Source: an uncultured delta proteobacterium (GTDB taxonomy: Bacteria > Myxococcota > Myxococcia > Myxococcales > Anaeromyxobacteraceae). From it: a DNA stretch of 64,000 nucleotides. A program made the position numbers and the translations under genes. The notes under the pieces are model-generated. The model saw only the letters and a list, made by a program, of their open reading frames with translations. It had not been told where the DNA came from and made no database searches. The stretch covers positions 72,638-136,637 of the forward strand of contig CAWHDZ010000018.1 of the NCBI GenBank assembly GCA_963828255.1, in the 5' to 3' direction. How positions within the stretch are numbered: the first letter of the stretch is position 1; each line of letters opens with the position of its first letter. Shown piece by piece: positions 8,904-56,461 of the stretch.

Positions 8904-8951
8904 CGCGACACCGATGTCGTGGTTCAGCCGGTTGAACCACTCCTTCGGGTG
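8904..8951. repeat. 48-bp palindromic element, copy 1 (copy 2 at 31177-31224)
   Basis: CGCGACAccgaTGTCGTGGTTCAgCCgGTTGAACCACTCCTTCGGGTG. It differs from copy 2 only in the first loop and at two positions near the centre of the second palindrome. Confidence 0.9.
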
Positions 8952-8962
8952 GGCGACCAAGG

Positions 8963-8985
8963 TCCCCGAGCCACCTTCGAAGCCG
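8963..8985. repeat. Degenerate copy of the rnpB 3' end (putative leftmost att site)
   Basis: tccccgagccaccttcgaagccg vs tgccggagccgccctgtaagccg (17/23). Same offset from the 48-bp element as the 31234 copy. Its right flank matches the flank of the 54321 copy. Confidence 0.65.
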
Positions 8986-9545
8986 AGGTTGAATCACTTT
9001 CGGTATGGGTCACTCATTGTCCCAGAGACAACGGCCGATTCCATCATCGGTCTACCCGTCGCGCGTGAAGGAGACCACGGCGGTATCGGTGATGACCATC
9101 CTCGGCCTCGACTCGCACGGCCGCGACCAACCAGGTCGCGTCGCTGGCCTGCCGTCGGGGCGAGTCACGCTCCCGGACAGCGCGGTCGTCAGCCTGGCGG
9201 CGACGCGAGCGTGCATTTTATTGCCTACATCGACCCACCCCCATGAGGGGCGCTGCAGGATTTGTGGCTCCATGCGTCAAGACGTGGGGATCCCGCCATT
9301 TTGGTCCCCACGTTCCTTACAGATGACTACACCTCGTTCGACCATCACCCCGACAGGCGACCCTCCAATGGGTCTACTGCGTACCTCGTTCATGGTACAG
9401 AAGCGTGCCTGATTCTGGATGGTCGGGAGGGATCAACAAGGTGGCAAGGAGCAAACATGAGAACGACGAGACAGCGCCCACTCACCAGGAAGGCCTTCAG
9501 CAAGTCGACCGCCGGCCGCCTGGCCGTGACACGAAGGGTGGAGAC

Positions 9546-9767
9546 ATGAGCGGCATCCGGACGGGACGGTCGCGGGGCGAGAAGATGAGCCTGTACATCC
9601 CTGGCGAGGTCCTCGCGGACATCCGGGCAGAAGCCCGCCGGCAGCAGCGAAGCGTGTCCTGGCTGATCCGTCAGGCATGGCGGCTCGCGCGGAAAGGCAT
9701 GGATGCCCTTCCGGCAGCGCAGGAATGGAACCCCGAAGAGGGCCCTGGCGCCCTGCCGAACTCCTAG
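9546..9767 (+). CDS. Myxobacterial small ribbon-helix-helix protein (TIGR04563-like)
   Basis: KMSLYIPGEVLADIRAEARRQQRSVSWLIRQAWRLAR; GGAG RBS upstream. Confidence 0.75.
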   Translation: MSGIRTGRSRGEKMSLYIPGEVLADIRAEARRQQRSVSWLIRQAWRLARKGMDALPAAQEWNPEEGPGALPNS

Positions 9768-9795
9768 GGAGCAACAGCGGTGCGGCCCCAGGCCC

Positions 9796-10287
9796 GTGCT
9801 AACGTTTCCCTTCGTGCACTCCCGGGGCACAGGCGGACGCGACGACGCGGGGTCCTCGCCGAAGCGCACGGGCCTCGAGGCCCGGATCGCCGATGCCCTG
9901 GTGACACGCCTCGTCGAGTCGCGGTTCTCCGAGGCGCTCATGGAGCAGATCCTCCAGGCGCTCACCGAGAGCCGCGACGTCGAGAAGCTGGTCGTCCACC
10001 TGCTCGAGCAGCCAGACGTGAGCGGCGCCGTCGATGCGCTGGTGGACCGGCAGCTCGGGCGGGTGATCGAGTCGCTGCGGGACAGCGAGGCACTCCGCGA
10101 GCTGGTGCGCGAGCAGGTCGACCTCTACCTGAGGCACCTCACCGAGAATCCGGAGGCCGTCCGGCAGCTCATCCAGGACCAGAGCCGCGGGATGGTCCGC
10201 GAGGTCCAGGCCACCCTGCGCGCCCGCGCGTACCTCGCCGACGACGCGGTCGACGCCTGGGTCCACCGCGTGCTGGGGCGACCGTGA
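9796..10287 (+). CDS. Hypothetical helical protein, start uncertain
   Basis: ORF 9703..10287 gives an amphipathic helical sequence; its stop overlaps the next GTG start. Confidence 0.6.
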   Translation: MLTFPFVHSRGTGGRDDAGSSPKRTGLEARIADALVTRLVESRFSEALMEQILQALTESRDVEKLVVHLLEQPDVSGAVDALVDRQLGRVIESLRDSEALRELVREQVDLYLRHLTENPEAVRQLIQDQSRGMVREVQATLRARAYLADDAVDAWVHRVLGRP

Positions 10288-10793
10288 CGCTGCGCTACGC
10301 CGGCCCGGTGAGTCGCGGGGGCGGCCGGGCCCTCGACATGGTCTCGCTCGCCGTCCTCGTCGCCGGTACGGGATGGCTCGCGCAGCAGTTCCTCGGGATC
10401 GACCCGGAACACTGTCCCCCTGCGACCGCGTGGTGGCACCTGCGGGCGCACCTGTGCGGCTTCATGCCCTACGCCATCCCGGTGGCCGGGGTGGTCATCC
10501 CGCCCACGTACCGCATCCTCTTCTACGCCCTCGCCGGGCAGACTCCGGGCATGGCGGTGATGGGCCTGCGGCTGCGGCGGTCGGACGGCCGGAAGGTGGG
10601 CATCCGGCAGGCCGTGAAGCGCGTCCTGACCTTCTACGCCACGCTCGGCTTCGGTTCCTTCCTCATCCCCGTGACGGCGCGGCGGCGGGCGCTGCACGAC
10701 ATCGTGGCCGGGACGGTGGTCGTCTACGATTGGGGTGAACACGAGCTCGACTTCCGGCGCGCCCTGGAGCAGCTGCGGTCGACCGATCCGTGA
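10284..10793 (+). CDS. RDD family membrane protein
   Basis: GQTPGMAVMGLR and RRRALHDIVAGTVVV; hydrophobic segments. Confidence 0.8.
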   Translation: MTLRYAGPVSRGGGRALDMVSLAVLVAGTGWLAQQFLGIDPEHCPPATAWWHLRAHLCGFMPYAIPVAGVVIPPTYRILFYALAGQTPGMAVMGLRLRRSDGRKVGIRQAVKRVLTFYATLGFGSFLIPVTARRRALHDIVAGTVVVYDWGEHELDFRRALEQLRSTDP

Positions 10794-10806
10794 TCCGGCT
10801 GCCCGC

Positions 10807-12012
10807 TCACCCCTCGCTGGTCATGATGAACAAGGGCGTCATCTCGAAGCTCTTGTAGTGCGGCCGGTACCGGTCGGCGTTGTAGAACCGGTCGACGTTC
10901 ACGACCTTCTTGGTGCTCGTCACGATGTCGAGCGGGATGTTGTCGTACCGGCCGTTCTTCAGCACCACCAGGCGGCCGTGGATTCCGGCGAGCAGCAGGT
11001 CGAGCGCGAGGTTGCCGTAGGCCATCGGCACGATGGAGTCGACCGCGTCCGGATCGCCGCCGCGCACCAGGTAGCCCAGCTTCTGGTTGATGATGTGAAC
11101 TTCCTTGCCCTTGTTGTGCTGCGCGGTGCGCTTCTGGATCTCGGCCGAGACCAGGTCCCCGATGCCGCCGAGCTTGGCGTGGCCGAAGGCGTCGGTGGTG
11201 CTGCTCTGGAACACCATCTCGCCGCCCTCGTACATCGAGCCCTCCGAGACCAGGCAGATGGCGTACTTGCTGGGATTTCGGGCGCGGTCGTACATCAGCA
11301 GCTCGGCGAGCCGGTCCATGTCGAACTTGTACTCGGGGATCACGCAGCGGTTCGCGGCGCCCGCCATCGTGGGCAGCATCGCCGTGAAGCCCGCGTAGCG
11401 GCCGAACACCTCCAGCACGAGCAACCGCTCGTGGGATCCCGCCGACGTGCGCAGCCGGTTGGCCATCTCGATGGTGCGCGTGACGCAGGTGCTGAACCCG
11501 ATGCAGTAGTCGGTCCCGGGAACGTCGTTGTCCATCGTCTTCGGGATCGCGATGACCTTGACGCCCTCCTTGTACAGGCGCACGCCGTAGCTGAGCGTGT
11601 CGTCGCCGCCGATCGGGATGAGGTAGTCGACACCGAGCCAGTCGAGGTTCTTGAGGACCTCCGGCGTCAGGTCGTTCGTCTTCCCCCTGTACCGATCCTT
11701 CAGGTGCTCGGGCACCCCATCGGCCTTCACCGCGCTGGGGCGGGTTCGCGACGTGTGCAGGAACGTGCCGCCCGTGCGCCCGGCCCGGTTGACGATCTCC
11801 TCGGTCAGGTTCTGGAAGTTGTCGCTGTTGTCGTGATCGTGCTCGCGCACGATGTCGATCGCGCCCGCCCAGCCGCGTCTCAGCCCGATGACCTCCCAGC
11901 CCTCCCGCAACGCCCGGATCGTCACGGCGCGGATGGCCGGATTCAGGCCGGGCACGTCGCCGCCCCCGGTCAGGATGGCGATCCGCTTCTTGCCGGTGTT
12001 CACGTTGGCCAT
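10807..12012 (-). CDS. 6-phosphofructokinase, PfkA family, with PPi-type signature
   Basis: ILTGGGDVPGLN, GGTFLHTSRT, GGDDT, IPKTMDND and EVFGR. Confidence 0.9.
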   Translation of the reverse strand: MANVNTGKKRIAILTGGGDVPGLNPAIRAVTIRALREGWEVIGLRRGWAGAIDIVREHDHDNSDNFQNLTEEIVNRAGRTGGTFLHTSRTRPSAVKADGVPEHLKDRYRGKTNDLTPEVLKNLDWLGVDYLIPIGGDDTLSYGVRLYKEGVKVIAIPKTMDNDVPGTDYCIGFSTCVTRTIEMANRLRTSAGSHERLLVLEVFGRYAGFTAMLPTMAGAANRCVIPEYKFDMDRLAELLMYDRARNPSKYAICLVSEGSMYEGGEMVFQSSTTDAFGHAKLGGIGDLVSAEIQKRTAQHNKGKEVHIINQKLGYLVRGGDPDAVDSIVPMAYGNLALDLLLAGIHGRLVVLKNGRYDNIPLDIVTSTKKVVNVDRFYNADRYRPHYKSFEMTPLFIMTSEG

Positions 12013-12322
12013 GATGGGTTCCTCCCGTCGGACCGGTCCAGCTTACTCCCAATGGCCCGACGGGGAGGGTTTCCGGCTCATCCTCGGCCCGTTCCTCCCT
12101 GGCGTCGGGGCGGTACGAGTTGACCATTCGTGAACCGACGCTCCCGAAGGGCAAGCAGCCGCCCCGGTCGGAATCTGCTCGGCGCGAGGGCGCGGGTGAT
12201 CGGCTCGAAAGAGCGGGGTCGGATGCAAATTGGCCACGCAATGGCCAGGCGGCGTGGGCGCAGATGGTTCTCCCCGGCCTGACGGAGGAAGGGACTCGAA
12301 GGACGCGAACGTGATTCCGGAG

Positions 12323-12420
12323 ACGGTTCGACGGACCTCGCCGCACACCTCGATGATGTCCTCGGCGAAGAGGCGCCAGTCCTGCGTGACGAGGTCCACC
12401 TTCCGGCCCAGGAGGTCAGG
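12323..12420 (-). pseudogene. Collapsed remnant of an MNT-HEPN toxin-antitoxin pair
   Basis: DLLGRKVDLVT (MNT C-terminal motif) joined directly to QDWRLFAEDIIE (HEPN N-terminal-like). Confidence 0.5.
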
Positions 12421-12447
12421 CACCGTGGACGGGAAGCGTGCCGGCAT

Positions 12448-12951
12448 TCATCCCTCCCCAGACGAGAAGCTGCCAGCGCCCGCCAGCACGAGGAACTGAT
12501 CCTGCTGTCCGGGCGCGAAGAGGTACGCCGTCGCCGAGAGTTGCCAGAAGGAGACCCCGATCAGAGGGCCGCCCTGCACCTCGGTCGAGGCCTGGAAGGC
12601 CCGGGGCCGCTGCAACACCACTCCGACACGGAGCCATTCGGGCCCCGTGACGCTGAACTCGGTCCAGTCGTAGAAGAAGCCCTGGGACGAATCGGCCAGG
12701 TCGAACACGTACGCGCTCTGGGACCAGAGCGCGAGCGGGCCCCACTCGAGCGTGAAGGAAAGGTTCCAGCCGATCCAGGCCGATCCGGCATTGCGCGCCT
12801 CGTAGTCGTATCGCGCTCCCAGGTGAAGGGATCCACGGTCCACCGTCAGGGTCGGTTGCAGGTAGTCCCTCTCGTCGCGGAGGACGTACCACAGGACGGA
12901 GGGACCCCATTCCCAAGCAGGCGCGTCCGCCGAGTTCGCAAGACCCGTCAT
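12448..12951 (-). pseudogene. Outer-membrane beta-barrel-like protein, probably truncated or internally deleted
   Basis: Aromatic-rich alternating beta-strand sequence with no intact signal peptide. Confidence 0.45.
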
Positions 12952-30599: not shown

Positions 30600-30949
30600 C
30601 GGGGACATCCATCGCGCGAAAAGCCTCGCCCATGCCTCCCTGCGAGCCTGCGATGCCTCGATCTCGGAAAGCCTGGCAAGTCCTAGCCTCGGGAGCGCAT
30701 CCAGAGCACCGGAACCTCGTCTTGGGCCCACCGGACGGCCTCGCGCAGTAGCTGACTGGGCTTCAGGAACACACCACGCTCGATACCGTAGAGCCCGGCG
30801 GCCTTCTCGCGCAGCGCCTCCGGATCGAGAAGCGCCTTGCCCTGAGCGAACGCCAAGGCGAGCGCACGCCCGACTCCGTTCTTCTGGAGCCGCTGCGCGA
30901 GCAGAAGGATCTCCGTCTCCGTCGCCGGCCGCTGCTTCACCTCTGCCAA
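30600..30949 (-). pseudogene. Unidentified gene fragment
   Basis: 88-aa ORF 30683..30949 with protein-like composition that seems to continue in another frame; it abuts the integrase remnant. Confidence 0.3.
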
Positions 30950-30981
30950 CTGGAGGAGCGTGTGCTCGACGAAGACACCGA

Positions 30982-31107
30982 CGTCGGAACACCTTCGCGT
31001 CTCAACGGGTCATGCACGGGGGCTTGATCGAGAAGCTGAAGGAAATCCTTGGGCACGACTCGGTGGTCATGACCGATCGATGCGCCCACCTCCGACCCGA
31101 CCTCTGG
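30982..31107 (+). pseudogene. Tyrosine integrase C-terminal (box II) remnant
   Basis: RNTFASQRVMHGGLIEKLKEILGHDSVVMTDRCAHLRPD matches the RHTFAS...LGH...T..Y.H pattern, with the catalytic Tyr changed to Cys. Confidence 0.85.
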
Positions 31108-31176
31108 GGCGTGATCGCGGGAAGGCACATCCCCCGACCTATTTCGCGGACGGATCGGTATTCAACCCACGTGAAA

Positions 31177-31224
31177 CGCGACATCCGTGTCGTGGTTCAA
31201 CCAGTTGAACCACTCCTTCGGGTG
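31177..31224. repeat. 48-bp palindromic element, copy 2
   Basis: CGCGACAtccgTGTCGTGGTTCAACCAGTTGAACCACTCCTTCGGGTG, containing the perfect inverted repeat GTGGTTCAAC-CA-GTTGAACCAC. Confidence 0.9.
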
Positions 31225-31233
31225 ACAAGTATG

Positions 31234-31262
31234 AATGCCGGAGCCGCCCTGCAAGCCGGGTC
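31234..31262. repeat. Direct repeat of the rnpB 3' end (att site)
   Basis: aatgccggagccgccctgcaagccgggtc, 28/29 identical to 56062-56090. Confidence 0.95.
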
Positions 31263-31366: not shown

Positions 31367-31388
31367 TATGCCACCCATATGCCACCCA
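31367..31388. repeat. Tandem 11-bp repeat, putative integrase arm-type sites
   Basis: TATGCCACCCA twice, about 105 bp inside the att repeat. Confidence 0.6.
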
Positions 31389-35313: not shown

Positions 35314-36153
35314 TCACCACGCGATGGCGATGCCACCCGGCGCGGGGAGGAGATCACCGGCCTGGGGCGGACCCTTCCTGCCCGGGCGGTGAAAGAGGTA
35401 GGGCACCGCCCAGCCGATGAGGCTGCCCACTCCCGCACCGACCAGGGTGTCGGACAGGTAGTGCTTGCCCGCGGCCATCCGCAGGTAGGCGGTGAACGAT
35501 GCCGCCGCAAGACCGACGCCGAGCACCCAGGGTGCGCCCGGCATGTCCTGCATGAAGAAGAGCGTGCTTCCAGACACCACCACGGCGAAGACGAACGTGG
35601 TGTGACCGCCGAAGAACGAGACGTTCGCGTCGGAGGTGGTCGCTGGATAGAGGTCCAGGGTTCCCTGCCAGACGTAGGGACGGGCCCGGCCCACCGAGTA
35701 CTTCACGATCACGTTCACGAGCATCGCCAGGCTCGTGGCCTCGGTGATGAGCAGCACGCTGGACCAGGCCGCAGCCGGATCGTCATGCAGGTAACCCTGG
35801 AGGAGCCCGAAGCCCATGACTCCCACCGGAATGGCGAACTGCATGACGTTCGAGACCGTGTTCGCAGCCGTGGGATTCGACCAGAGAACGGACCGGGAGA
35901 TGTCGCCGTCGATGGGACCGGGCTCGCACCACTTGCAGTCGAGCGGGGCCAACTGGTTGTTCAGCAGGAGCAGCGTGAGCGTGCTCACGGCTAGGCCGCC
36001 GGTGACGATGCCGTCGACGGTCCAGTCGTAGGAGAGCTTGGTGAGCTCCTGCGAGGACGCCGGCGTGGGGGCCTCAGGGGAGGCATCCGAGGCCTGGACG
36101 CTGGTCGCTGCCAGGCAAGAAGCAAGGAGGGCGGCACCGAGCACGGGGCGCAT
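35314..36153 (-). CDS. PAP2 family membrane phosphatase
   Basis: KYSVGRARP, SFFGGH and YLRMAAGKHYLSD. Confidence 0.88.
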   Translation of the reverse strand: MRPVLGAALLASCLAATSVQASDASPEAPTPASSQELTKLSYDWTVDGIVTGGLAVSTLTLLLLNNQLAPLDCKWCEPGPIDGDISRSVLWSNPTAANTVSNVMQFAIPVGVMGFGLLQGYLHDDPAAAWSSVLLITEATSLAMLVNVIVKYSVGRARPYVWQGTLDLYPATTSDANVSFFGGHTTFVFAVVVSGSTLFFMQDMPGAPWVLGVGLAAASFTAYLRMAAGKHYLSDTLVGAGVGSLIGWAVPYLFHRPGRKGPPQAGDLLPAPGGIAIAW

Positions 36154-36186: not shown

Positions 36187-36996
36187 GTGCATGTGCAGGG
36201 ACTGCGCGCCATCGCCTTGGTACTCCTTGTCGCCAACGCATCCTCCGCCCGAGGGGCAGAGGCGCCGATCCCCCTCCAGTACAACCTCGCGCTCGACCTC
36301 TCGATCACGGGCGCGATGGGGGCCTCGATCATCCTGCTCACGATCTACCAGCCCGAACTCCTGCCCGAGACCTGCCGCTGGTGCACCCCTCCGGGCATCG
36401 ACGTGGCAGCACGACACGCACTGGTCTGGAGGGGCGCGGAGCGCACGGCGGACGTACTATCCACGGTCATCGACGCGGTGATTCCAGCCTCCGCCGCGAC
36501 CTATTTGCTTCTCTCGGCGAATGGCGCAGGCGACGTCAATGCCGGCCTCGTCGACTGCTTGCTCGTGACGGAGGCTGCCGCTGCGGCCCTGCTGCTGAAC
36601 CAGGTCGTGAAGCTGCTCGTCGGCCGCAAGCGGCCCCACGTGTACTTCAAGAACGAGCTCGGCTATGCGGCGAGCGAGGACAACCTCTCCTTCTACGGTG
36701 GCCATACCTCGTTCGCGTTCTCGGTCGCCGCCGCCACGGTCACGGTGGCGGCGATGCGTGGATACGCAGGCGTCGGGATCGTCGCAGGCGTCGGGTTCAC
36801 TTTGTCGGCCGCCGTCGGCTACCTCCGCATCGCGGCGGACCAGCACTATCTGACCGACATCCTCATCGGGTCAGCCGTGGGGAGCCTCATCGGGTGGGCG
36901 ATCCCCCGAATCTTCCACTCACCGGTTCCGGGAAACCCGACGACGCCGGGGGCAGGAATGCGGATGCCTCCAGTCGGGCTCACGCTGGTCTTCTGA
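36187..36996 (+). CDS. PAP2 family membrane phosphatase (paralog)
   Basis: KLLVGRKRP, SFYGGH and YLRIAADQHYLTD. Confidence 0.88.
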   Translation: MHVQGLRAIALVLLVANASSARGAEAPIPLQYNLALDLSITGAMGASIILLTIYQPELLPETCRWCTPPGIDVAARHALVWRGAERTADVLSTVIDAVIPASAATYLLLSANGAGDVNAGLVDCLLVTEAAAAALLLNQVVKLLVGRKRPHVYFKNELGYAASEDNLSFYGGHTSFAFSVAAATVTVAAMRGYAGVGIVAGVGFTLSAAVGYLRIAADQHYLTDILIGSAVGSLIGWAIPRIFHSPVPGNPTTPGAGMRMPPVGLTLVF

Positions 36997-41714: not shown

Positions 41715-41763
41715 CCGGGGTGTTCCGCACTTGGCCGAGCGTGGTGAATCTGCCATGTTTATC

Positions 41764-41777
41764 GTTGCAAGTGCAAC
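41764..41777. promoter_or_regulatory. Palindromic operator (MarR-type candidate)
   Basis: GTTGCA-AG-TGCAAC between the divergent GH15 and otsA starts; the TTGCA-N2-TGCAA core recurs at 45305-45316. Confidence 0.55.
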
Positions 41778-41779
41778 TC

Positions 41780-44033
41780 ATGCGATTCGCGCTCCGATTC
41801 GTCATCCCCCTGCTCGTCCTCCTCGCGGTCGTCGCGCTGGGGGCATCGGCGTTCATGAGCGCGCAGGCGCATCGCTGGGCGGAGCGGGATCTCACCATGC
41901 GGGCCCAGGTCATCCTGGCCGGCGCAAGGGAAGGACTGACCGATCGCCTTGGCCGCAACGAACGCTCCCGGGCAGTGGCTCTCCTCGAGGAACTCGTGCG
42001 CGACGAGCGTCTCCTGGGAGCCGCGATCTGCGCCACCGGAGAGCACCCGACCAGGTCGACCACGGCCTTCCCGAAGGACTTGAAGTGCGACTCCGTGGTT
42101 CCGGGCAGCAGCACGTCCGGCAGCTCGGGTGTGTTCCGCCTGGTCGGCGGCACCGTTCACATGAGCGTGCTGCCCATCGTCGACGACGCCGGCGCGACCA
42201 TCGGCAGGCTGGCCCTGGTCCACGACATGAGTTACGTGGATCGACGCGCCTCGGAAACGCGGACGGCGACCTTCCTCGTGTTCGCGGTGGTCGGCCTCCT
42301 GGCCGCTGGCGCGACGATTCTCGCCTCTCGGTTTTCCTGGGTATCCTGGAGCAACGAACTCCGCCGGCACCTGGCCGCCCCGTTTCGGTCGGGCCAGGGC
42401 CCCTCCTCCGCGCCACAGCGAGCCTTCCTTCCCGTCCTCTCCGACGTCCGGGAACTGGTGCAACGATTGACGTCGGAGGAGTCAAGCGCTGCCGGCGGAC
42501 GGTGGACCCCCGAGCGGCTTCGCGGGGTTCTTCGCTCCCGCCTCCACGGTGAGGGCGTCGTGGTCGTGGCGAACCGAGAACCCTACATTCACGAGCGGAT
42601 GCCGGACCGGTCGGTCCGCGTGGTCTACCCCGCCAGCGGCCTCGTCACGGCGATGGAACCGGTCATGCGGGCGTGCTCGGGCACTTGGATCGCCCACGGC
42701 AGTGGCTCGGCCGACCACGACACCGTGGATGCCCACGACCGCGTCCGTGTTCCTCCCGGGGACGAGGCCTACAACCTGCGCCGACTGTGGCTCACCGAGG
42801 CCGAGGAGCGAGGCTACTACTACGGCTTCGCGAACGAGGGACTCTGGCCCCTCTGCCACATCGCGCACGCGCGCCCGGAGTTCCGCTCCGAGGACTTCGA
42901 GCAGTACCAGCGCGTCAATCTCCGGTTCGCCAGGGCCGTGGTCGAGGAGGCGACGGTCCCGGACCCGATCGTCCTCGTGCAGGACTACCACTTCGCCCTG
43001 CTCCCCAGGATGCTCCGGGAGTTGCTCCCCCGGGCGACGATCATCACGTTCTGGCACATTCCGTGGCCGAACGCGGAGCGGTACGGCATCTGCCCCTGGG
43101 CGCGCGAGCTCATGGAGGGACTTGCTCGGGTCGAGCATCCTCGGCTTCCACACCCAGGCCCACTGCAACAACTTCATGGAAAGCGCGGACCGTTACCTCG
43201 AGGCTCGCATCGATCGGGAAAGCCAGGCAGTGGTAATGGGCGGCCGGGAGACACTCGTTCGCCCCTACCCGATCTCCATCGAGTGGCCGAATCACTGGGC
43301 CGCCGGGGCTCCCTCCGTCGGCGAGTGCCGGCGAAAGGTCCGCGAGGATCTCGGCTTGCCCCCAGACTGCCTGCTCGGTGTCGGTGTCGATCGTCTCGAC
43401 TACACGAAAGGCATCCTGGAACGCTTCCTGGCAGTGGAGCGGCTGCTCGAGCGATTCCCCCAGTATCGGGGACGATTCTTCTTCCTCCAGGCCGCCGCGC
43501 CCAGCCGTACCGTGATCGAGACCTACCGCAGGCTCGGCGAGGACGTGGACCTCCTGGCGACGCGGATCAACGAGCGGTTCGGATTCGGGGGGCCGGGGCC
43601 GATCGTCCTGCACCACCAGCACACGGAGCCCGGGGCGATCATGGAAGCGTACCGTGCCGCAGACCTCTGCTACGTCTCCAGTCTCCACGACGGCATGAAC
43701 CTCGTCGCGAAGGAATTCGTGAGCGCCAGAGACGACCTCCGCGGCGTGCTCGTCCTGAGTCGATTCACCGGCGCTGGACGGGAACTGACCGAGGCGCTCG
43801 TGGTGAATCCCTATGACCTGAACGAGGCATCGAACGCGATGGCGGCGGCCTTGAGCATGCCGGGGGACGAGCAGGAGCACCGGATGCGCGCCCTCCGCAG
43901 CATGGTTTCGGAGTTCAACGTTTACAGATGGGCGGGGCGAATGCTGCTCGACGCAACCCGGGTTCGAGAGCATGACCGCCTGTCGCTACGCCTGGCGGAC
44001 GCTCGCCGTGCCGGGAGCGCGACCCTTCCGTGA
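41780..44033 (+). pseudogene. otsA: Trehalose-6-phosphate synthase with an N-terminal membrane domain; one frameshift near 43115
   Basis: VVANREP, SGLVTA, LWPLCH, QDYH and FWHIPWP in one frame; GFHT, GVDRLDYTKGI and DGMNLVAKE in another. Confidence 0.88.
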
Positions 44034-44800
44034 CCGACCTGCTGGGCGCCCCGGGGCTGGCCGAGCTGCGCGAGGTCGCCGGCTCCCACGCTCTGCTGGC
44101 ATTCGACTTCGATGGAACGCTCGCCCCCATCGTACGGAACTCCGAAGATGCGGCGATGAGACCCCGGACGAGGAAGCTCCTCGCCCAGATTTCCCTCCGC
44201 TTTCCCTGCGCCATCATCTCGGGTCGTCGGCTATCCGACCTCCGTGCACGGGTCGACGGGATTCCGATCCGCTGGTTCATAGGCAACCACGGAGCCGAGG
44301 GGGTAGTCCCCTTCCCAGGGGCGGGGAACCTCCGGCGAACCGTGATCGGCTGGCGCGACTCGCTCCAGGCGGAGGTCGGCCGTTGGGGGGGTGCCCAGAT
44401 AGAGGACAAGGGCTTCTCCCTGTCGGTCGACTACCGGAACGCGGCCAGCCGCAAGGAAGCGCGGCGAGCCATCCTCCGCTGCGCCCGGAGCCTGCCTGGG
44501 GTCCGGATCGTCCGTGGCAAGTGCGTTGTGAACCTCGTGCTGGAATCCGCCCCGAACAAGGGGACTGCGCTCGCACACCTCGTCGGCCTGCTGGACCCCG
44601 AGCGCGTCCTCTTTGCCGGAGACGACGATACCGACGAGGATGCGTTCGAGATGGACCTGGGCGTTCCCTCGACGACGATCCGGGTGGGCGGAGCCGGTCC
44701 CAGTCGTGCGAGATTCCGTCTCGAAGGGCAGGATGCGATCGACCGGCTTCTCCAGATCTTGCTGGACTCGAAGACAGGCGTCACGGAGGAAGAGGAATGA
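44030..44800 (+). CDS. otsB: Trehalose-6-phosphate phosphatase
   Basis: DFDGTLAPI, ISGR, GNHGAE, NKG and GDDDTDED. Confidence 0.92.
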   Translation: MTDLLGAPGLAELREVAGSHALLAFDFDGTLAPIVRNSEDAAMRPRTRKLLAQISLRFPCAIISGRRLSDLRARVDGIPIRWFIGNHGAEGVVPFPGAGNLRRTVIGWRDSLQAEVGRWGGAQIEDKGFSLSVDYRNAASRKEARRAILRCARSLPGVRIVRGKCVVNLVLESAPNKGTALAHLVGLLDPERVLFAGDDDTDEDAFEMDLGVPSTTIRVGGAGPSRARFRLEGQDAIDRLLQILLDSKTGVTEEEE

Positions 44801-45252
44801 GGCGGATGGATACGGCACCCGACGTCCTGGACGTCATGCAGGTTCTCTGGGCATTGGCCCACGCGCTCGAGGCCCGATCCAAGCGGATGCACCGCGACCT
44901 TGGAATCACGGGGCCCCAGAGACTCCTCCTCCGCGTCGTTGGCCAGTCGCCCGGGTGCGGGCCGGGAGAGGCGGCTCGCAGGTTGAGCCTCAACCCCGGG
45001 ACGGTGAGCAGGCTCGCCGCCGGCCTGGAGCGGCGAAAGCTGGTTCGACGGGAACTGGACCAGGTGGACAGGCGCAAGCAGCGACTGGTGCTGACCGCTC
45101 GCGGCAGGCTGCTCAACGGGCACCATCGCGGGACCGTCGAAGGAGCCGTTCGGGAGGCTCTCGCCGGGGCGACACCGAGCGAGGTCCCGCTGGCCCGGAA
45201 GTTCATCCGCCGGCTCACGGCGTCACTGACCGTCCCGGGCGCTGAACGGTAG
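44797..45252 (+). CDS. MarR family transcriptional regulator
   Basis: LGITGPQRLLL, GTVSRL..LE, DRR...LTARG. Confidence 0.88.
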   Translation: MRRMDTAPDVLDVMQVLWALAHALEARSKRMHRDLGITGPQRLLLRVVGQSPGCGPGEAARRLSLNPGTVSRLAAGLERRKLVRRELDQVDRRKQRLVLTARGRLLNGHHRGTVEGAVREALAGATPSEVPLARKFIRRLTASLTVPGAER

Positions 45253-45339
45253 CGCTTTCGCGTGCTCCTTGCGCGACGAGATGCCTCGGCCCAGGCTTCA
45301 TTTATTGCATCTGCAACTAAAAAGCTCCGCTCCACGATC

Positions 45340-45989
45340 TGCTGCTCCTTCCAGGGAGATGCCGTTGTGCGAAGCAGCCCGGTTTCGGCAAGGTCTGCTT
45401 CTAAGGCGAGTGCCGGGAGTGCGGCCTGGACAAGGACTGCAAGACCGGGTTCTGGTGCAGGGGCTTCCAGTGCGTGCCGCGCCCGGAGTGCGAGGTCCCC
45501 TTCGATTGCGGGAAGGGCAGGACCTGCGAGCTCGGGAAGTGCGTGGCAACTGCCCCGGCGCCACAATGCGGTCCTGGGTCCGGTGATCGCGTGTGCGATC
45601 CAGGCCAGGTTTGCGACGCGGGCACATGTCGGGTCGCGCCGCCTCCGCCGGACCCCTGCCGCGATCTCGGCAGCGTCTTCTTCTCCCCTGGTTCGACGTC
45701 ACTCACGGAGAAGTCGCGCGCTACGCTGGCCGAGGACGCGTCCTGTTTGGCGTCTGGGCCAAAGCGAGCGGTCATCGAAGGCAACTCCGACGACGGGAAG
45801 ACCCCTGAGGAGGGCGTGAATCTGGGCCTCCGAAGGGCAGCGGCAGTGAAGAAGTACCTCCTCAGCCTGGGCGTTCACCGTGCGCTCCTCTCCACCATCA
45901 GCTACGGCGACACGCGCCGCGTCTGCACGGAACCCACCGAGGACTGCCGGCAAGAGAATCGCAGGGTCGACCTGAACATCCACAAGTGA
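45340..45989 (+). pseudogene. Cys-rich OmpA/Pal-domain protein, 5'-truncated with a premature stop
   Basis: KQPGFGKVCF*GECREC..., then IEGNSD, LGLRRA..V..YL, ISYG and ENRRV. Confidence 0.7.
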
Positions 45990-46465
45990 CGGCCACGGCG
46001 CGGGCGGCGCGCCGCTTGGCCCTTCCAGGAGGTCCGCCAGATGAAGAGCCCGACGATACCTCGACGCAGGGGGAAGTGAGGCCGATAGGCACACGCCACT
46101 GCTCTCCTTCATCGCCCTCGGCCTGCTCGACATTGCGGCACTGGTCGCCTTCCTGGCAAAGCTTGCCTGGCAGACAACCTGCGCGCTGTAGAGTTCGCGC
46201 AGACCCGCCTTCCCTGGAGTGGGGTCGGGCAGCCCCGGGCAGGATGACCCCTACGATGACTGAACGGCACGCTCCAGTGCGTACAGGGTCTGAAGTACAT
46301 CCGTGAGCCCGAGAAAGTAGGTCATCGTTCCCGCAATCTCCGAGCGGGATTCCTGGACTTGGGCGCTGACAGCCAACGCCCGCTGGAGGCGCAATCATGG
46401 CCGAAGGCCGACTGGGTAGGAGATACCCACGGGAAGCCAAATGGATCTGCAGGCAAGCAATTGCG

Positions 46466-47104
46466 TCAGGGTTCCCATCGCACGGAGTCACCCACCGCGA
46501 TCTCGCCGCCCTCGATCACGAAGCAGTCGAGCGCGAGGGTGCCTCCGAAGCGGCGGAAGATGCTGCGGGTGACACCCTTGTCCTGGACCTGCGTGTCTGG
46601 ATCGAACGAGGTCATGATGCAGCGCTGGCGCAGGTCCTGGACGCCGATGAGCACCTTGCCGATGCGAAGGGTTCCGCCTGGCCATTCGCGTTCGGCCAGG
46701 CCATCGACGCCCCCGATCACGATGTTGGGGCGCAGGCGGCGGTGGTCGTAGCCAAATGCGGCGATGGCGCCATCCGTCGCCACGAGTAGCGGCAGCACAT
46801 CGAAACGCTCGGCTCCGTCGAAGCGAACCAGGCGTGACCCATCCCCGGCGATGTCGACGACGTCCGCCGCAACCTCCAGGCCTCGCCACGGCCGGCCGTC
46901 CACCAGGGGCTCCCCGTCGAGGCCCAGGGTGCCCTTGTGGGCCAGGAAGCGCGGGTGACTACGGGACGTGATCACCCTCCCGTGGGCGTCTTCCACGTGA
47001 ACGACACGGTCCCCTCCGACGCCAAGCGAGCCGATGTCGACACGCTGCAGCATCTCGCCCGCCATGGTCTTGACCGGATATCTCCAGATCTCCGCGACCG
47101 TCAT
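46466..47104 (-). CDS. MOSC domain protein
   Basis: IWRYPVKTMAGE, GDR, RRLRPNIVI, RC and IAVGD. Confidence 0.85.
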   Translation of the reverse strand: MTVAEIWRYPVKTMAGEMLQRVDIGSLGVGGDRVVHVEDAHGRVITSRSHPRFLAHKGTLGLDGEPLVDGRPWRGLEVAADVVDIAGDGSRLVRFDGAERFDVLPLLVATDGAIAAFGYDHRRLRPNIVIGGVDGLAEREWPGGTLRIGKVLIGVQDLRQRCIMTSFDPDTQVQDKGVTRSIFRRFGGTLALDCFVIEGGEIAVGDSVRWEP

Positions 47105-47241
47105 ACCGCGAAGGAGGCGATCGCCGTTCCGTTTCTGTCTGCTGGCAGCGGTGTCGGTCATTGTGGTTCGACATCCAATGCCGCGGATGCGGAAACATTT
47201 CCATGTCAAATCGACCCGTTGACCGGCCCCTCCTGATGCAC

Positions 47242-48705: not shown

Positions 48706-48875
48706 CCCCGCCGGCGTCATCGCCGACCGGGATGGCGGCCCGCCCATCCAAGTTCCTGCAGCGGAGGTCCCGCCGCACCCTTTGAATCTGTGAGGAAGCA
48801 CGATGCCACGGCGCCATGGCCCCGTCGAGCGGCCGGTGTCAGGGGCTTCCACGTCCACGCCCGCCGTCCTGCTTC

Positions 48876-48980
48876 GAGGTTCGAAGGGTCTACCTCGCGA
48901 TCCGGGATCAGTCGGAGGGACTGGCAGTCGGGTTTGCCCTGGGAGCGTTTGGCGGCTTGCGCCCCGGTGAGGCATTCGGT
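48876..48980 (+). pseudogene. Tyrosine integrase box I fragment
   Basis: EVRRVYLAIRDQSEGLAVGFALGAFGGLRPGEAFG matches the G(L/M)R.GE catalytic-Arg motif. Confidence 0.65.
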
Positions 48981-50411: not shown

Positions 50412-51752
50412 ATGAATAGGTTCAGGCGGTTCTGGGACTATCTGAGGTCGAGCTTCTGGTTCGTTCCCTCGCTGATGGTCGGCGGCAGCATCGTCCTCGC
50501 GGCCGGGTTGATCGAGCTGGACACGGCCCGGAGCCACGAGTGGTTCGCCCAGTGGCCGCGCCTCTTCGGGGCTGGGGCGGAAGGCGCACGCGGGATGATG
50601 TCGACGATCGCCACCTCGATGATGACCGTGGTGGGCGTCACGTTCTCCATGATCCTGGTGGTGCTGGCGCTGGCGTCGAGCCAATACACGTCGCGGGTCC
50701 TGAGAAACTTCATTCGCAGCCGCGTCACGCAGTTCGTACTCGGGACCTTCGCCGGCATCTTCACGTATTGTCTGATCGTGCTGCGAAGCATTCGCGGGAA
50801 CGAAGCGGGTGCCTTCGTTCCCGCCCTGGCGGTGTTCTTCGGCTTCGTGCTGGCGCTGGCCGGCGTGAGCGCGCTCATCTTCTTCATTCACCACGTCGCG
50901 ACCTCGATCCAGGCCTCGAGCATCATCGCCACTGTTGCCGACGAGACCATGTTGGCCATTGACCGACTCCTTCCAGGAGGACATGGGCAAGGGCCGACCG
51001 ACGACGATGAGCAATCCGCGACCCTTGCTCGGCCGGGGCGGAACTGGCAGTCGGTCCCCGCCAGGGAGAGTGGCTACATCCAGAACGTGGATGGCGAGGC
51101 GCTTCTACGTCTTGCGAGGAAGCACAGGACCACCGTGCGCATGGAACGGGGCATCGGTGAATTCGTGGTCGACCAAACCCCCCTCGTCTCGCTCGATCGG
51201 GAAGGTCCGCCGGACGGTGAGATCATCGGCGCACTGCAATCGGCCTACAGCATCGACCGCCGTCGCACGCTGGAACAGGATGTTGCATTCGGGATCAGGC
51301 AAATCGTGGACATCGCGTTGCGCGCGCTGTCTCCGAGCACCAACGACACCACGACCGCCGTGATGTGCTTGGACCATCTGACGGCCATCCTGTCCCGCGT
51401 GGCGTCCCGACGAATACCTCCGTCGCATCGCTACGAGGACGGCGACCTGCGGGTGATCACCATCGGGCCGACCTTCGCCACGTTGCTGGAGGAATCGTTC
51501 GATCAAATTCGAGGCAGCGCCGTCGGAAACGTCGGCGTCCTGCTACGGATGCTCGTCGCGCTTCAAACCATCGCCAGTCTCACGGCTAGCCCGAGTCGGC
51601 GGCGGTCGCTTCGTGAACAGGTGGAATGGATCGCCGAGTCGGCCGAGCGCACCGTCGAGTCCTTGCACGATCGTTCGAGGATCGACGTGCGGCTGAAGAG
51701 CGTGCGTGAAGCGCTCGAAGGGGAGCCGGCGTCTCATGAAATCGGCCCATGA
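50412..51752 (+). CDS. DUF2254 family membrane protein
   Basis: SSFWFVP, ASSQYTSR, SGYIQ, RTLEQD..FG.RQ..DIALRALSPSTNDTTTA. Confidence 0.88.
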   Translation: MNRFRRFWDYLRSSFWFVPSLMVGGSIVLAAGLIELDTARSHEWFAQWPRLFGAGAEGARGMMSTIATSMMTVVGVTFSMILVVLALASSQYTSRVLRNFIRSRVTQFVLGTFAGIFTYCLIVLRSIRGNEAGAFVPALAVFFGFVLALAGVSALIFFIHHVATSIQASSIIATVADETMLAIDRLLPGGHGQGPTDDDEQSATLARPGRNWQSVPARESGYIQNVDGEALLRLARKHRTTVRMERGIGEFVVDQTPLVSLDREGPPDGEIIGALQSAYSIDRRRTLEQDVAFGIRQIVDIALRALSPSTNDTTTAVMCLDHLTAILSRVASRRIPPSHRYEDGDLRVITIGPTFATLLEESFDQIRGSAVGNVGVLLRMLVALQTIASLTASPSRRRSLREQVEWIAESAERTVESLHDRSRIDVRLKSVREALEGEPASHEIGP

Positions 51753-51807
51753 TCCCGAGGGCGTACCGTTCCTCGAAAGGACGAGAAGCCGGAGAAGACG
51801 CCGAGCC

Positions 51808-53193: not shown

Positions 53194-53197
53194 GCGG

Positions 53198-53467
53198 ATG
53201 AGCGACCCCGCCTTCAAGGCGCTGGCCGACCCGACCCGACGGGAGATACTCCGTTTGCTTGGAGCGAGCGAGATGTCGGTGAACGACATCGTCGAGCGTT
53301 TCTCGGTCTCGCAGCCCGCCATCTCCCGGCACCTCGCCGTGCTCCGGCACGCGGGGTTGGTCACCTCCAGGCGCGAAGGGCAAAGCGTGATCTACGCCCT
53401 CGACACCACGGTGATGCAGGACGTGGTGAGGGCCCTGCTGGACCTCCGAGGAGGAACGAAGCGATGA
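53198..53467 (+). CDS. ArsR family repressor (SdpR-like)
   Basis: FKALADPTRREIL, SQPAISRHL, RREGQ and Y.LDTTV. Confidence 0.9.
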   Translation: MSDPAFKALADPTRREILRLLGASEMSVNDIVERFSVSQPAISRHLAVLRHAGLVTSRREGQSVIYALDTTVMQDVVRALLDLRGGTKR

Positions 53468-54177
53468 CTCGATACGGCCGATTGCTTCCAGGAGTTGCGC
53501 TTCTCGCGGACGTGATCGCCTCGGTGGTGCTCTATCCGAATCTCCCCGCAACCGTGCCCGTGCACTGGAACCTCCTGGGCCAGCCGAACGGCTACGGGAG
53601 CCGCCTTCAACTCGTGCTAGGTGGCCCCCTGCTCGTCGCTGCCATCTGGCTGCTCCTGGTATGGCTTTCCCGTCTCGATCCTCGCCGAGTGCGGGGGCCG
53701 GCGGTGGAGGCCGGGGAGCACTCACACGATGACCAGGACGGCTCGTACTGGACCGTGATCCAGACCGTGGTCGCGCTGCTGGCGGTGCTCCACGTCGCTG
53801 TGCTGCTCGTCGCCGCGGGGCTCCTGCAAGGAATCAATCGGATCGCCGCGCTCTGCCTGGCGCTACTCCTCATCCTGCCCGGGAACTTCATCGGTCGCGT
53901 CCGGCCCAACTGGTTCGTCGGAGTCCGGACGCCTTGGACGCTTGCGTCCGACACGGTGTGGCGGAGGACGCACCGGCTGGCCGCCCGGATGATGGTCGGC
54001 GGTGGTCTCGTACTGCTGCCGCTCGCGCTCCTCCTTCCTCCCGCGGGCGCCCTCGTTGCGGCGCTGGTCATCTTTGGTGTCGCCGTGCTCGGCCCCACGG
54101 TGTGGAGCTACTTCGCGTGGAGGCAGGAGCAAAGAGCCCGGCTCTCGGGTGATTCCCGGGGGAACCGGCCTGGATGA
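53464..54177 (+). CDS. SdpI family immunity protein
   Basis: YPNLP..VPVHWN..G.PNGY and PNWFVGVRTPWTL.SD.VW.RTH. Confidence 0.9.
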   Translation: MTRYGRLLPGVALLADVIASVVLYPNLPATVPVHWNLLGQPNGYGSRLQLVLGGPLLVAAIWLLLVWLSRLDPRRVRGPAVEAGEHSHDDQDGSYWTVIQTVVALLAVLHVAVLLVAAGLLQGINRIAALCLALLLILPGNFIGRVRPNWFVGVRTPWTLASDTVWRRTHRLAARMMVGGGLVLLPLALLLPPAGALVAALVIFGVAVLGPTVWSYFAWRQEQRARLSGDSRGNRPG

Positions 54178-54257
54178 CGAGCTCGGCGACCCTGTCTGGG
54201 AGGGGAGAAGCTGGCAGTCCGGCCCTCGACGTCACGTGCGACGTCGTTCCCGTGCGG

Positions 54258-54277
54258 GTTGGGCAGTCGTTGGGCAG
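54258..54277. repeat. 11-bp-period direct repeat, putative arm-type sites
   Basis: GTTGGGCAG-TC-GTTGGGCAG, about 45 bp from the att repeat. Confidence 0.5.
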
Positions 54278-54320
54278 GGCCGAGCGGACCCTGGGGCCTA
54301 AGTAGTCGAAGTCAGGACAA

Positions 54321-54349
54321 AAATGCCGGAGCCGCCCTGTAAGCCGGGT
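54321..54349. repeat. Direct repeat of the rnpB 3' end (att site)
   Basis: aaatgccggagccgccctgtaagccgggt, 29/29 identical to 56061-56089. Confidence 0.97.
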
Positions 54350-54463
54350 TCGAAACGCTGTCGGTATGGGTCGCGATCCCGAGCGACTGGGCGCGACAAG
54401 GGGGCGGAAGTACTCGAGGCAGCGCGACCGGCGGCGACGGGGCGTGCCACCGGAGCGACACCG

Positions 54464-54482
54464 TAAGTCAGATTAAGTCAGA
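54464..54482. repeat. TAAGTCAGA tandem pair, with an inverted copy at 55998-56006
   Basis: TAAGTCAGA-T-TAAGTCAGA; TCTGACTTA at the opposite end of the element. Confidence 0.7.
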
Positions 54483-54550
54483 ACAACGTCACGTGTGGTG
54501 AACTACCCGTTCCGGACGCACTCCGGGTGGCAATGCGTCGACCGTCGCCC

Positions 54551-55036
54551 CTACTCCCCTGCCCCCAGCAGCTCGACTGCCACGGTCGCCGGACAGCCCA
54601 TCCTGAGCGGACCGCAGGGGGTGTCGGCCAGGCGCAGCGACTCGTGGACCAGGTCACCCGTCCACTCCCTCCGGGCCCCCAGGAGGAACGCGAACTCGTT
54701 CACGCTGCCCAAGACGACGCGGCTCCGGGTGGCCGCGAGTTGCACCTCCGCCATCGCCTCGAGTTCCCTCTCGATTGTGACGGGAACAACCCCCAGCCGG
54801 GCCAACATCTCCGAGAGCGCCTCCCGGAACCTGGGTACGAACGTCTTCCCCGGTTTCGCCGGGACGAGCACGGGTAGCAGCGTGCGGTCGTTGACCGCCA
54901 GGATGACCTGCCCTCCGGACAGGTAGAGCAGGTTCGCGTGCCAGTCCCCGAGGCGCGCTGTGGGCGGGCGCTCCTTCTTGGAGGGCTCAACTCGAAGGCG
55001 GGCGAGGAGTTTACGGGTGCAGCGAAGGGTGACCAC
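54551..55036 (-). CDS. DUF6933-like protein
   Basis: LRCTRKLL, LGDWHANL, VNDRTLLPV, TRSRVVLGSVNEF and LADTPCGPL. Confidence 0.75.
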   Translation of the reverse strand: MVTLRCTRKLLARLRVEPSKKERPPTARLGDWHANLLYLSGGQVILAVNDRTLLPVLVPAKPGKTFVPRFREALSEMLARLGVVPVTIERELEAMAEVQLAATRSRVVLGSVNEFAFLLGARREWTGDLVHESLRLADTPCGPLRMGCPATVAVELLGAGE

Positions 55037-55196
55037 GGGCAGGGAGTGTAACCCGCGCACCCCTGTCCGGCGTCGTGCAGTAGCGACCACTCCCGCTTCC
55101 ACTCCAGGAACGGGGCTCCAGAGGCCCCCCCTCGTTCGACGGCAGGCGACGCGTCCGAGGGCCGGGTGTCCTGGATGACATGCCCCTCGACGGTGA

Positions 55197-55469
55197 TCAG
55201 AGCCTCGCATTCACGTACTTCGCGAGGATCATCTTGGCTGCGGTCTGGTACCCGACTCCCAGCTCGCGGCCACGCCGTCGAAGGGCATCCTTCAACTCGT
55301 CGCTGAGCAGGATGGACGTCGGCCTCTGGGGACGGACGACGACGGCTGCTCCCGCCGACGCGATGTCGCCACCGAGGTCCTGCTGTTCGAATTCGCGCAG
55401 TGTCGCGTCACGGCGAGTGGTCGCGTTCTTCATCTTCCGCGCACCGGCGGTCTTCTTACGTCCCTGCAT
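55197..55469 (-). CDS. BrnA/CopG-like antitoxin
   Basis: PTSILLSDEL...LRRRG.ELGVGYQT RHH-type C-terminus; overlaps the toxin stop. Confidence 0.75.
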   Translation of the reverse strand: MQGRKKTAGARKMKNATTRRDATLREFEQQDLGGDIASAGAAVVVRPQRPTSILLSDELKDALRRRGRELGVGYQTAAKMILAKYVNARL

Positions 55470-55779
55470 CGTACGCCTCCTTCTCCTTCTTCCGCATCGC
55501 TCGGCAACTGATCGGGCGGAGCTTCTCGCCACGCCGCGCGAAGACCAATGCCGCACCGCGACCATCCGCCGTCACTCCGAGGAGCAGGTACCGTGGCTCC
55601 TCGTGTGCCGGCTCGACGATGCGCCCGGCGAACAGCACGGGCGCGTCGAGCAGTGAGTCAACGTCCGCGATGCTGAACCCATGCTTCGCCTCGCTCTTCG
55701 AGCTGTTGCCGGCGTCCCACTCCGTCGCGGGACGCGTTCCTAGCCAGGCAGCGACGTCTGGGTCGACGGTCAGCTTCAC
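55456..55779 (-). CDS. BrnT family toxin
   Basis: EWDAGNSSK..KHG, EPRYLLLG and LVF..RG..LRPISCR.M.KKE...Y. Confidence 0.88.
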   Translation of the reverse strand: MKLTVDPDVAAWLGTRPATEWDAGNSSKSEAKHGFSIADVDSLLDAPVLFAGRIVEPAHEEPRYLLLGVTADGRGAALVFARRGEKLRPISCRAMRKKEKEAYDAGT

Positions 55780-55790
55780 CGGACCGAAGT

Positions 55791-55809
55791 ATAGCTATGT
55801 CATAGCTAT
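55791..55809. promoter_or_regulatory. Perfect palindromic operator upstream of brnT
   Basis: ATAGCTATG-T-CATAGCTAT, 11 bp upstream of the GTG start. Confidence 0.7.
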
Positions 55810-56038
55810 TCGTCCATCAGGGCGGACCGCGGGCGGCGGCCCCGTCGTCGTTGCGCTCGCAGAGCACGGTGCCCGCCGGGCAAAGGATCGTCGCCGGGAG
55901 AGGGCGCCAGGTCTGGAAAGAGTTCACAGCCCGACTGGAGCAAGTCCCCTGTGATCTCTGGATGTTGACGGGCCCGTGAGCGGTTTGCCGGCGCTTTTCT
56001 GACTTACCGACGGTCGAGATCGGCGGCACAGACGCCGT

Positions 56039-56051
56039 CAAAATATTGATA
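56039..56051 (-). promoter_or_regulatory. IHF consensus site next to att
   Basis: Minus strand TATCAA-TATT-TTG matches WATCAA-N4-TTR exactly in high-GC DNA. Confidence 0.6.
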
Positions 56052-56063
56052 ATACTGCACAAA

Positions 56064-56461
56064 TGCCGGAGCCGCCCTGTAAGCCGGGTCCTGTCCCGCC
56101 GGAAAACCGGCGGTGACGAACATTCCTCTCGGACGCGCGTTGCCGCGCGTCTCTAGCGAGCCGTACCCGGAGGCTGGGGCGAGCCGCCCGACACCCCGTC
56201 TTGCGACGGAGACGCCTCCCTATTTGCTCTTGCACCGGGTGGGGTTTGCCTTGCCGCTCCGGTTACCCGGAGCGCGGTGCGCTCTTACCGCACCGTTTCA
56301 CCCTTGCCACGCACGCCTCGCGGCGCCGTTCGGCGGTCTGTTCTCTGTGGCACTTTCCCGCGGGTCACCCCGGCCGGTCGTTGACCGGCACCCTGCCCTG
56401 TGGTGCCCGGACTTTCCTCGGCGGACACGAGTTCCGACGCGTTCGTCCGGACGGCTCCGGC
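56064..56461 (-). ncRNA. rnpB: RNase P RNA (bacterial type A)
   Basis: Minus strand has GAGGAAAGTCCGGGC, GAAAGTGCCACAGA, GGTGAAACGGTGCGGTAAGAGCGCACC, GGCAAACCCCACCCGGTGCAAG and ACAGGACCCGGCTTAC; P1 ends GCCGGAGCCG/CGGCTCCGGC pair. Confidence 0.97.

Follow-up and report, generated by a model that had tools for sequence, protein, structure and literature searches.

We analyzed a 64,000-nucleotide (nt) stretch of DNA, referred to here as the window, from an uncultured member of the Anaeromyxobacteraceae (contig CAWHDZ010000018.1, positions 72,638 to 136,637), in which the 3' end of rnpB, the gene for RNase P RNA, is repeated. On the minus strand, Infernal found RNase P RNA of class A over the full model (positions 1 to 367), in agreement with the initial annotation of this DNA. 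The 29-mer at 56061-56089, which holds the end of rnpB, has a second copy without mismatches at 54321-54349 (29/29), a third at 31234-31262 (28/29), and a decayed one at 8963 (17/23 matches). These four cores share one orientation, with spacings of 1.74, 23.1, and 22.3 kb; all of the copies claimed in the initial annotation were recovered, the one at 8963 by its flanks. We consider it very probable that the rnpB 3' end is the bacterial attachment site (attB) of one myxobacterial tyrosine-integrase clade and that the window holds a decayed stack of its elements. The gene, the attachment (att) cores, and the arms, one of which carries an integration host factor (IHF) box, are as follows.

56064-56458 (minus strand): intact rnpB gene for class A RNase P RNA (RF00010, 283 bits)
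56061-56088 (plus strand): att core in the rnpB 3' end, gene-side junction, 28-bp identity block (identity drops after 56088)
55990-56060 (no strand): element arm next to rnpB that includes an exact IHF box, 56039-56051 (minus strand); resembles arms after intact integrases in L047 and L104-L106
54238-54487 (plus strand): internal junction, with left arm 54238-54320, core 54321-54349 (29/29), and right arm 54350-54487
31171-31262 (plus strand): hairpin 31171-31229, like a repetitive extragenic palindrome (REP), and core 31233-31262 (28/29); same layout as the distal junction in G060, G064, and G058
31367-31388 (plus strand): tandem 11-bp arm-type repeat right of the core, seen in the sequence; putative arm function
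12168-12284 (plus strand): orphan right-hand arm without a core, 78% identical to the arm of a G058 junction (E 3e-22)
8900-9014 (plus strand): decayed distal junction, with hairpin 8904-8951, core 8960-8987, and arm 8991-9014; 79% identical over 115 bp to G064

In a scan of the whole 4.3-Mb assembly, one further near-copy of the 29-mer was found, a second rnpB allele on contig C17, and the next-best site had 6 mismatches. Because only the C17 allele adds a near-copy, the repeat is not dispersed genome-wide. A de novo repeat scan recovered the three good cores and missed the one at 8963. With a 28-bp matrix built from related sites, 13 genome sites, which include the four true copies and 8963 itself among them, reach the score of the 8963 core; it is therefore not above chance alone, and we dropped it as evidence by itself. 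Its surroundings are more informative, as 8900-9014 aligns with the distal junction of the relative G064 and the core has a hairpin before it as at 31234 and an arm after it like that at 54350, all in register. Taken together with these flanks, the 8963 copy is real. The sole tRNA of the window is at 58842, upstream of rnpB, and the target itself matches RF00010 and is neither a tRNA nor a transfer-messenger RNA (tmRNA).

The arm-like short repeats claimed in the initial annotation are directly visible at 54259-54277, 54463-54482, and 31367-31388. Its IHF box held at one place only: the motif that we take to be the IHF consensus is exact at 56039-56051, and boxes at the other three junctions of the window were rejected because they carry 2 to 3 mismatches. 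Across 125 sites an exact box was present in 7, versus 0 in 2,500 shuffles. The hairpin beside two of the cores, presumably REP-like, has 7 regular-expression copies in the assembly. Hairpins of this dispersed family, about 50 to 60 bp long, lie at 8904-8951 and 31171-31229 of the window and on contigs C11, C17, C19, C26, and C31, and the 48-bp hairpin was therefore rejected as an element arm. Its folding is strong at 8898 (z of -3.0) and weak at 31171 (z of -1.5).

Extra cores are common in relatives. Of 91 family relatives, 79 matched a 21-nt core pattern, and 25 of these 79 had 2 to 6 copies; the reversed control pattern matched none of 92 genomes. Order-wide, among matching genomes at least 90% complete, this family had two or more cores in 20 of 55 genomes, a second family in 6 of 14, a third in its single genome (1/1), and the largest family in 9 of 138. 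Core copies on the same contig have the same orientation and lie 0.75 to about 18 kb apart, and the same junctions recur in independent genomes. G090 has a second, internally deleted rnpB copy between cores, 2.3 kb downstream of the intact gene (L044:15810-16042).

Fifteen full-length integrases adjoin cores, and in 14 of them the catalytic tyrosine lies 143 to 165 nt from the core. A protein search of the genome collection, with 13 rnpB-adjacent integrases as the query, yielded 79 loci with titles mostly from Anaeromyxobacteraceae and other Myxococcota. In 29 of these, rnpB (22 loci) or its core (7 loci) directly follows the integrase; the query set accounts for 12 of the 29, and the other 17 are from outside the query alignment. 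A tree of 85 proteins was then considered, for which L224, L225, 3 duplicates, and 13 integrases that were short or broken (9 being rnpB adjacent) were set aside, with the viral loci L226-L280 outside the analysis. One 28-tip clade, with a Shimodaira-Hasegawa-like approximate likelihood ratio test (SH-aLRT) value of 100, takes in all 24 integrases labeled as adjacent to rnpB or its core. Two of the remaining four tips have a core 0.65 and 2.6 kb further on and two are at contig ends, so that 26 of 28 have rnpB or a core. None of the 31 tRNA-adjacent integrases falls inside this clade, and none of its 28 members is beside a tRNA. The clade is target specific. Among 50,697 GenBank phage records we found no close integrase, the best full-length matches being about 27% identical. 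At L046, L063, L103, L108, and L114, the integrase reading frame crosses the att core, and integration would therefore alter the integrase C terminus and extend it antisense into rnpB or into the next arm.

The window contains remnants of such integrases and of other element genes.

30979-31107 (plus strand): integrase C-terminal fragment, catalytic tyrosine replaced by cysteine; 81 to 82% nt identity to one integrase subtype
48876-48979 (plus strand): integrase fragment with the first catalytic arginine motif, fused to a sensor-kinase remnant; 94 to 98% nt identity to rnpB-adjacent integrases that are intact
51703-51777 (plus strand): integrase fragment, mid-protein; 68% amino acid (aa) identity over 25 residues, 84 to 87% nt identity
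52031-52171 (plus strand): sigma-region-4-like gene fragment, from a gene known from intact rnpB elements; 87% aa and 92% nt identity to the G059 element gene
30618-30985 (minus strand): SacI-type restriction endonuclease gene fragment; 82% nt identity to a G058 gene, Pfam RE_SacI

The initial annotation had proposed integrase remnants at 30982 and 48876, and both were confirmed. Intact integrases of relatives match 30988-31107 at 75% aa identity, and the fragment at 48876-48979 is 98% identical in nt to the intact rnpB-adjacent integrase of G058; the fragment at 51703-51777 makes a third. All three match the rnpB clade best, the first with its top 9 hits there and a tRNA-site integrase close behind (62.4 versus 65.5 bits). 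The 30979 fragment belongs to a different integrase subtype than 48876-48979, so the window holds at least two subtypes. An nhaA-I riboswitch-like RNA (RF03057, 42 bits) at 48730-48780 (minus strand) lies ahead of a truncated NhaA antiporter gene and immediately adjoins the 48876 fragment.

The attachment site was also seen in viral contigs. In L203, L204, L207, and L208, a core lies 135 to 165 nt after the integrase tyrosine without the rnpB gene body and is flanked on both sides by direct arm repeats. Beyond the core, L203 and L207 encode tail genes, L203 ejection proteins, and L207 an endolysin; the scan of L208 gave only families of unknown function. These four contigs look like unintegrated temperate phages whose phage attachment site (attP) copies the rnpB end. 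A free form of this kind, a core between two arms, was found in viral contigs and not for the segments of the window. Phage contigs L205 and L202/L209 have 0.65 kb (apparently an HNH-like open reading frame) or 2.6 kb between the integrase and the rnpB core. The relatives, the target-specific clade, and the phage attP sites together back the proposal of the initial annotation that rnpB serves as attB and was hit at least three times with the gene left intact.

Next, we considered where in the core the exchange takes place. We compared 73 gene sites with 52 non-gene sites, which include at least two end-cut gene copies (L011 and L289) and one likely chance match (L142). Agreement of the non-gene copies with the gene consensus is at least 0.83 over 56069-56088 and 0.42 at position 56089, which gives a shared block of 56061-56088. 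In G064 and G390 the gene and the distal copy differ at 56087, and the exchange therefore lies to the left of this position. A recurring CTGCAAG variant in non-gene copies was left unused for placing the crossover, because the window and G060 may share one event. According to the standard RNase P structure, the core spans the junction where helix P4 ends and P1 begins. With G-U allowed, all 10 pairs of P1 are kept in 71 of the 73 gene copies. The exchange would most likely occur in the 7-mer 56076-56082, at the P4 end and P1 start, keeping the P4 strand host derived and taking the outer P1 strand and tail from the element. Because the element's own copy restores that strand and tail, rnpB would survive integration.

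The sister integrases suggest where this target came from. On the integrase strand, rnpB reads CCTGTAA and then GCCG, which closely resembles CTTTTAA in tRNA-Lys and CTTCGAA followed by GCCG in tRNA-Arg. The sisters duplicate tRNA 5' halves ending at positions 37 to 40 or 3' halves starting at 28 to 33, as seen in L139, L147, L152, L155, L171, L172, and likewise phage L210. An anticodon-loop crossover class is listed in the Islander paper, as far as its accessible text goes (PMC4383910). Because the sisters cross over in tRNA anticodon loops, the rnpB clade probably arose by a target switch, in which integrases cutting such loops would have read the rnpB antisense strand as a look-alike. We lean toward an overlap at 56076-56082 and toward this origin from tRNA sites. 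Most of the tRNA-site sisters (L139, L146-L148, L152-L156, L162, and L167-L173) lie upstream of the tRNA and, in those cases in which a duplicate could be identified, replace the tRNA 5' half, an arrangement that is rare in the Islander text available (159 of 3,919; PMC4383910).

In the mechanism that we propose, one integrase clade, carried by temperate phages and by 9- to 14-kb nonphage elements, would use the rnpB 3' end, with a 28-bp copy of that end held in the element attP. The rebuilt site would be reused, and earlier residents would lose their integrase and persist as att-bounded cassettes and composites. The stack in the window would then represent at least three, and probably at least five, integration events. 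The repeats, the target-specific clade, the attP sites of the phage contigs, and the remnants are observed, and we infer the recombination activity, the exact crossover, and the order of events.

The cores divide the accessory DNA into three segments, all of which are 3.6 to 4.8 GC points below the genome.

54349-56060 (minus strand): 1.7-kb integrase-less cassette with BrnT toxin, putative antitoxin, and DUF6933 genes (Pfam)
55456-55779: BrnT toxin (Pfam), within the 1.7-kb cassette
55197-55469: putative antitoxin, assigned by position only
54551-55036: DUF6933 gene (Pfam), within the 1.7-kb cassette
31263-54237 (no strand): 23-kb composite segment, parts of it common to G062, G064, and contig C17
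9015-30617 (no strand): 22-kb block with PFK, sulfate permease, glucose dehydrogenase, GH63, and a two-component system; shared across the genus in shuffled order

The same BrnT pair also lies between cores in G058, G059, G060, and G064. The 23-kb segment (67.3% GC versus 71.4% for the genome) carries trehalose synthesis genes, a CLC channel, PAP2, CAAX protease-ArsR-SdpI, and an NhaA remnant. In this segment, a 110-bp inverted repeat (35382-35491 and 36816-36925) comes from two divergently oriented PAP2 paralogues, and trehalose-6-phosphate synthase (41720-44033) is split over two frames that both match Glyco_transf_20, probably by a frameshift. Directly upstream of rnpB is a pair of PIN toxin and FitA-like antitoxin genes at 56513-57186 (minus strand), which is variable or doubled in relatives (G062 and G064) and absent in G055.

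The second allele shows the site in another state. Contig C17, from the same bin, is 99.6% identical to the window from 56040 to the window end, with the differences clustered near rnpB, and it departs from the window exactly at the core, where a different arm follows, together with a 97-aa integrase end and different cargo. This allele (L001, oriented 1-6241) has a proximal element with an integrase C-terminal remnant, MOSC, and OmpA-family genes, the latter 88% like window 44795-47161. The bin contains strain duplicates (6.6% contamination and many 99% contig overlaps), and because of these overlaps C17 and the window most plausibly represent two coexisting strains with different elements next to rnpB. 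We found no clean excision joint in the contigs of 4 runs, a material in which contigs cannot show absence.

The strain duplicates, together with the dispersed hairpin beside two cores, could suggest that the repeats stem from local duplication, a dispersed repeat, or mixed-strain misassembly. However, the core itself is not dispersed, the same junctions are found in independent genomes, and the junction at 54321 is spanned, with 1 difference, by a 246-nt contig from run X1, though X1 may be the source sample. We regard an artifact of this kind as highly improbable. Only slightly more credible is that the integrases truly target tRNA genes, with rnpB a secondary look-alike. The sister integrases do reside at tRNAs, and the 8963 core shares its 7-mer with the tRNA-Arg(UCG) loop, but what the phage attP sites duplicate is about 28 bp of rnpB, P1 strand included, and not a tRNA, and the tRNA-free surroundings of the 28 clade members likewise speak for rnpB.

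A different question is whether the stack consists of exactly three whole elements of 1.7, 23, and 22 kb, with one insertion each and the oldest farthest from rnpB. The spacings of the initial annotation stood, and the single orientation of the four cores, the low GC of every segment, the att debris found at each end of the 22-kb segment (an integrase fragment and arms), and G058, where the 22-kb block genes also lie between two cores, fit such a picture. Set against it are the integrase fragments, which represent at least two subtypes and are out of order, extra arms such as the orphan at 12168, and the hairpin and core of the relatives' distal junction, which is present twice. Furthermore, in G060, G062, G063, and G064 the genes of the 22-kb block are reordered, mixed with RIO1 and its neighbors, and outside any core; in G060, RIO1, the hairpin, and a core are just 6.1 kb from rnpB. 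The 23- and 22-kb segments are composites and not single elements. Because of these composites and of the block genes outside att sites in relatives, the age-ordered picture of three elements is too tidy and we find it unlikely, and the fall of identity with distance from rnpB, taken as an age order, is not reliable.

Several points weigh against our preferred reading of rnpB as the attB of this clade, in addition to the displaced block genes. The locus in the window has fragments only, with no intact integrase or polymerase. A true empty site was sought in relatives and none was found among the 73 rnpB gene copies, in that the hairpin is directly beside the gene in 0 of 73. Part of the multicopy core counts could come from strain duplication of the kind seen for C17. 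The protein-search query was built from rnpB-adjacent proteins, the tree is a quick maximum-likelihood tree with SH-aLRT and without bootstrap, and the nearest sisters of the rnpB clade, the tRNA-Leu integrases, join it with low support (65). Finally, the flanks of the proposed 7-mer show weak inverted symmetry (3 of 5 bases), and the register may instead be one of 8 bp at 56078-56085.

Complete elements between cores were found in G075 (9.4 kb) and G059 (14.4 kb), and a partial one in G050. Besides an integrase and an excisionase-like gene, all three encode a family B polymerase of 760 aa. The nearest named matches of this polymerase are Aeromonas and Escherichia coli proteins of 865 to 866 aa (E of about 1e-20 to 1e-28), which bear the piPolB motifs given in the available text of PMC5695915. 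In the myxobacterial polymerase, the PolC motif SxTTDG reads SVSTDAV, with the first Asp replaced and the second kept (STD for TTD), and the KH-X8-KTRG motif is absent, the aligned columns lacking the KH lysine and reading xRxR. Because of these two differences, we label it a probable sister group of piPolB, that is, piPolB-like. It is present in 13 of 401 genomes of the phylum, was not found in the window's genome with a polymerase query, and gave no PDB sequence match. Of nine other polymerase loci fetched, seven lie near a tRNA-Pro, in each case with an unrelated integrase. Polymerases of about 760 aa with a C-terminal helix-turn-helix occur in small integrative elements at rnpB or tRNA-Pro (L041, L037, L112, and L337-L345); polymerase P0001 has a degenerate exonuclease region, and P0002 keeps it. 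Pipolins, as far as they are described in the accessible parts of PMC5695915 and PMC11551731, likewise combine an integrase, an excisionase-like gene, and PolB and swap integrase and target, but their polymerase differs in the two motifs above and the window has none. The main text and one supplement of the pipolin survey contain no mention of rnpB, RNase P, or Myxococc- (PMC11551731).

The rnpB stack works like islands at tRNA genes and like arrays of cis-mobilizable elements (CIMEs), but it falls outside the tRNA/tmRNA class. In the portions of the Islander paper available (PMC4383910), tRNA/tmRNA islands likewise have a tyrosine integrase, a target that is split and restored, tandem arrays, and a displaced 3' fragment in the same orientation as the intact target gene, and they share the anticodon-loop crossover class with the sister integrases. 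Here, in contrast, the target is an RNase P ribozyme gene, outside Islander's search, and the integrase points toward the gene end. An intact integrase of its own in each island, a feature of the Islander type, is present in relatives and absent from the window. In the passages of PMC5704250 at hand, CIMEs are integrase-less, att-bounded remnants stacked at one target by repeated integration and decay, a definition that fits the 1.7-kb cassette (54321-56088); they are described for integrative and conjugative elements and integrative and mobilizable elements with streptococcal examples, whereas we saw no conjugation genes here. The closest published case, judged from the accessible text of PMC12540744, is phage phiEf11 in ffs (4.5S RNA), which also uses a housekeeping non-tRNA RNA gene as attB and has a 27-nt core near the integrase end, in a different gene and host phylum. 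The RNA integration targets named in that text are tRNA, tmRNA, csRNA, and ffs, and rnpB is not among them. Full-text literature searches, with subscription journals mostly beyond their reach, did not find rnpB as attB; in the text available of PMC4524478, PMC2705793, PMC4256840, PMC10763512, PMC10383233, PMC12540744, and PMC12424338, rnpB is a marker, an annotation item, a reference, or unmentioned. The TIGER database, which is independent of target type, may already contain rnpB-site islands.

Tentatively, and with the balance somewhat against it, one can go further and picture a tRNA-loop integrase lineage that was retargeted to the antisense strand at the P4/P1 junction of rnpB, which is universally conserved, and where the site in Anaeromyxobacteraceae would be a cassette-stacking platform and the integrases of phages and of the undescribed pipolin sister group would move cassettes in trans. 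If this is true, integrases would add, excise, and shuffle small integrase-less cassettes of toxin-antitoxin pairs and stress genes, and every newcomer would give an essential ribozyme a rewritten outer P1 strand and 3' tail. Island finders keyed on tRNA and tmRNA genes miss rnpB targets, and about one-third of the matching family relatives have extra copies. The related elements would extend piPolB-like polymerases to Myxococcota, and integration vectors for myxobacteria might be built on a core that lies in a conserved essential gene. For work on how integrases change target, a family of tRNA-site integrases with one clade at rnpB is a natural choice.

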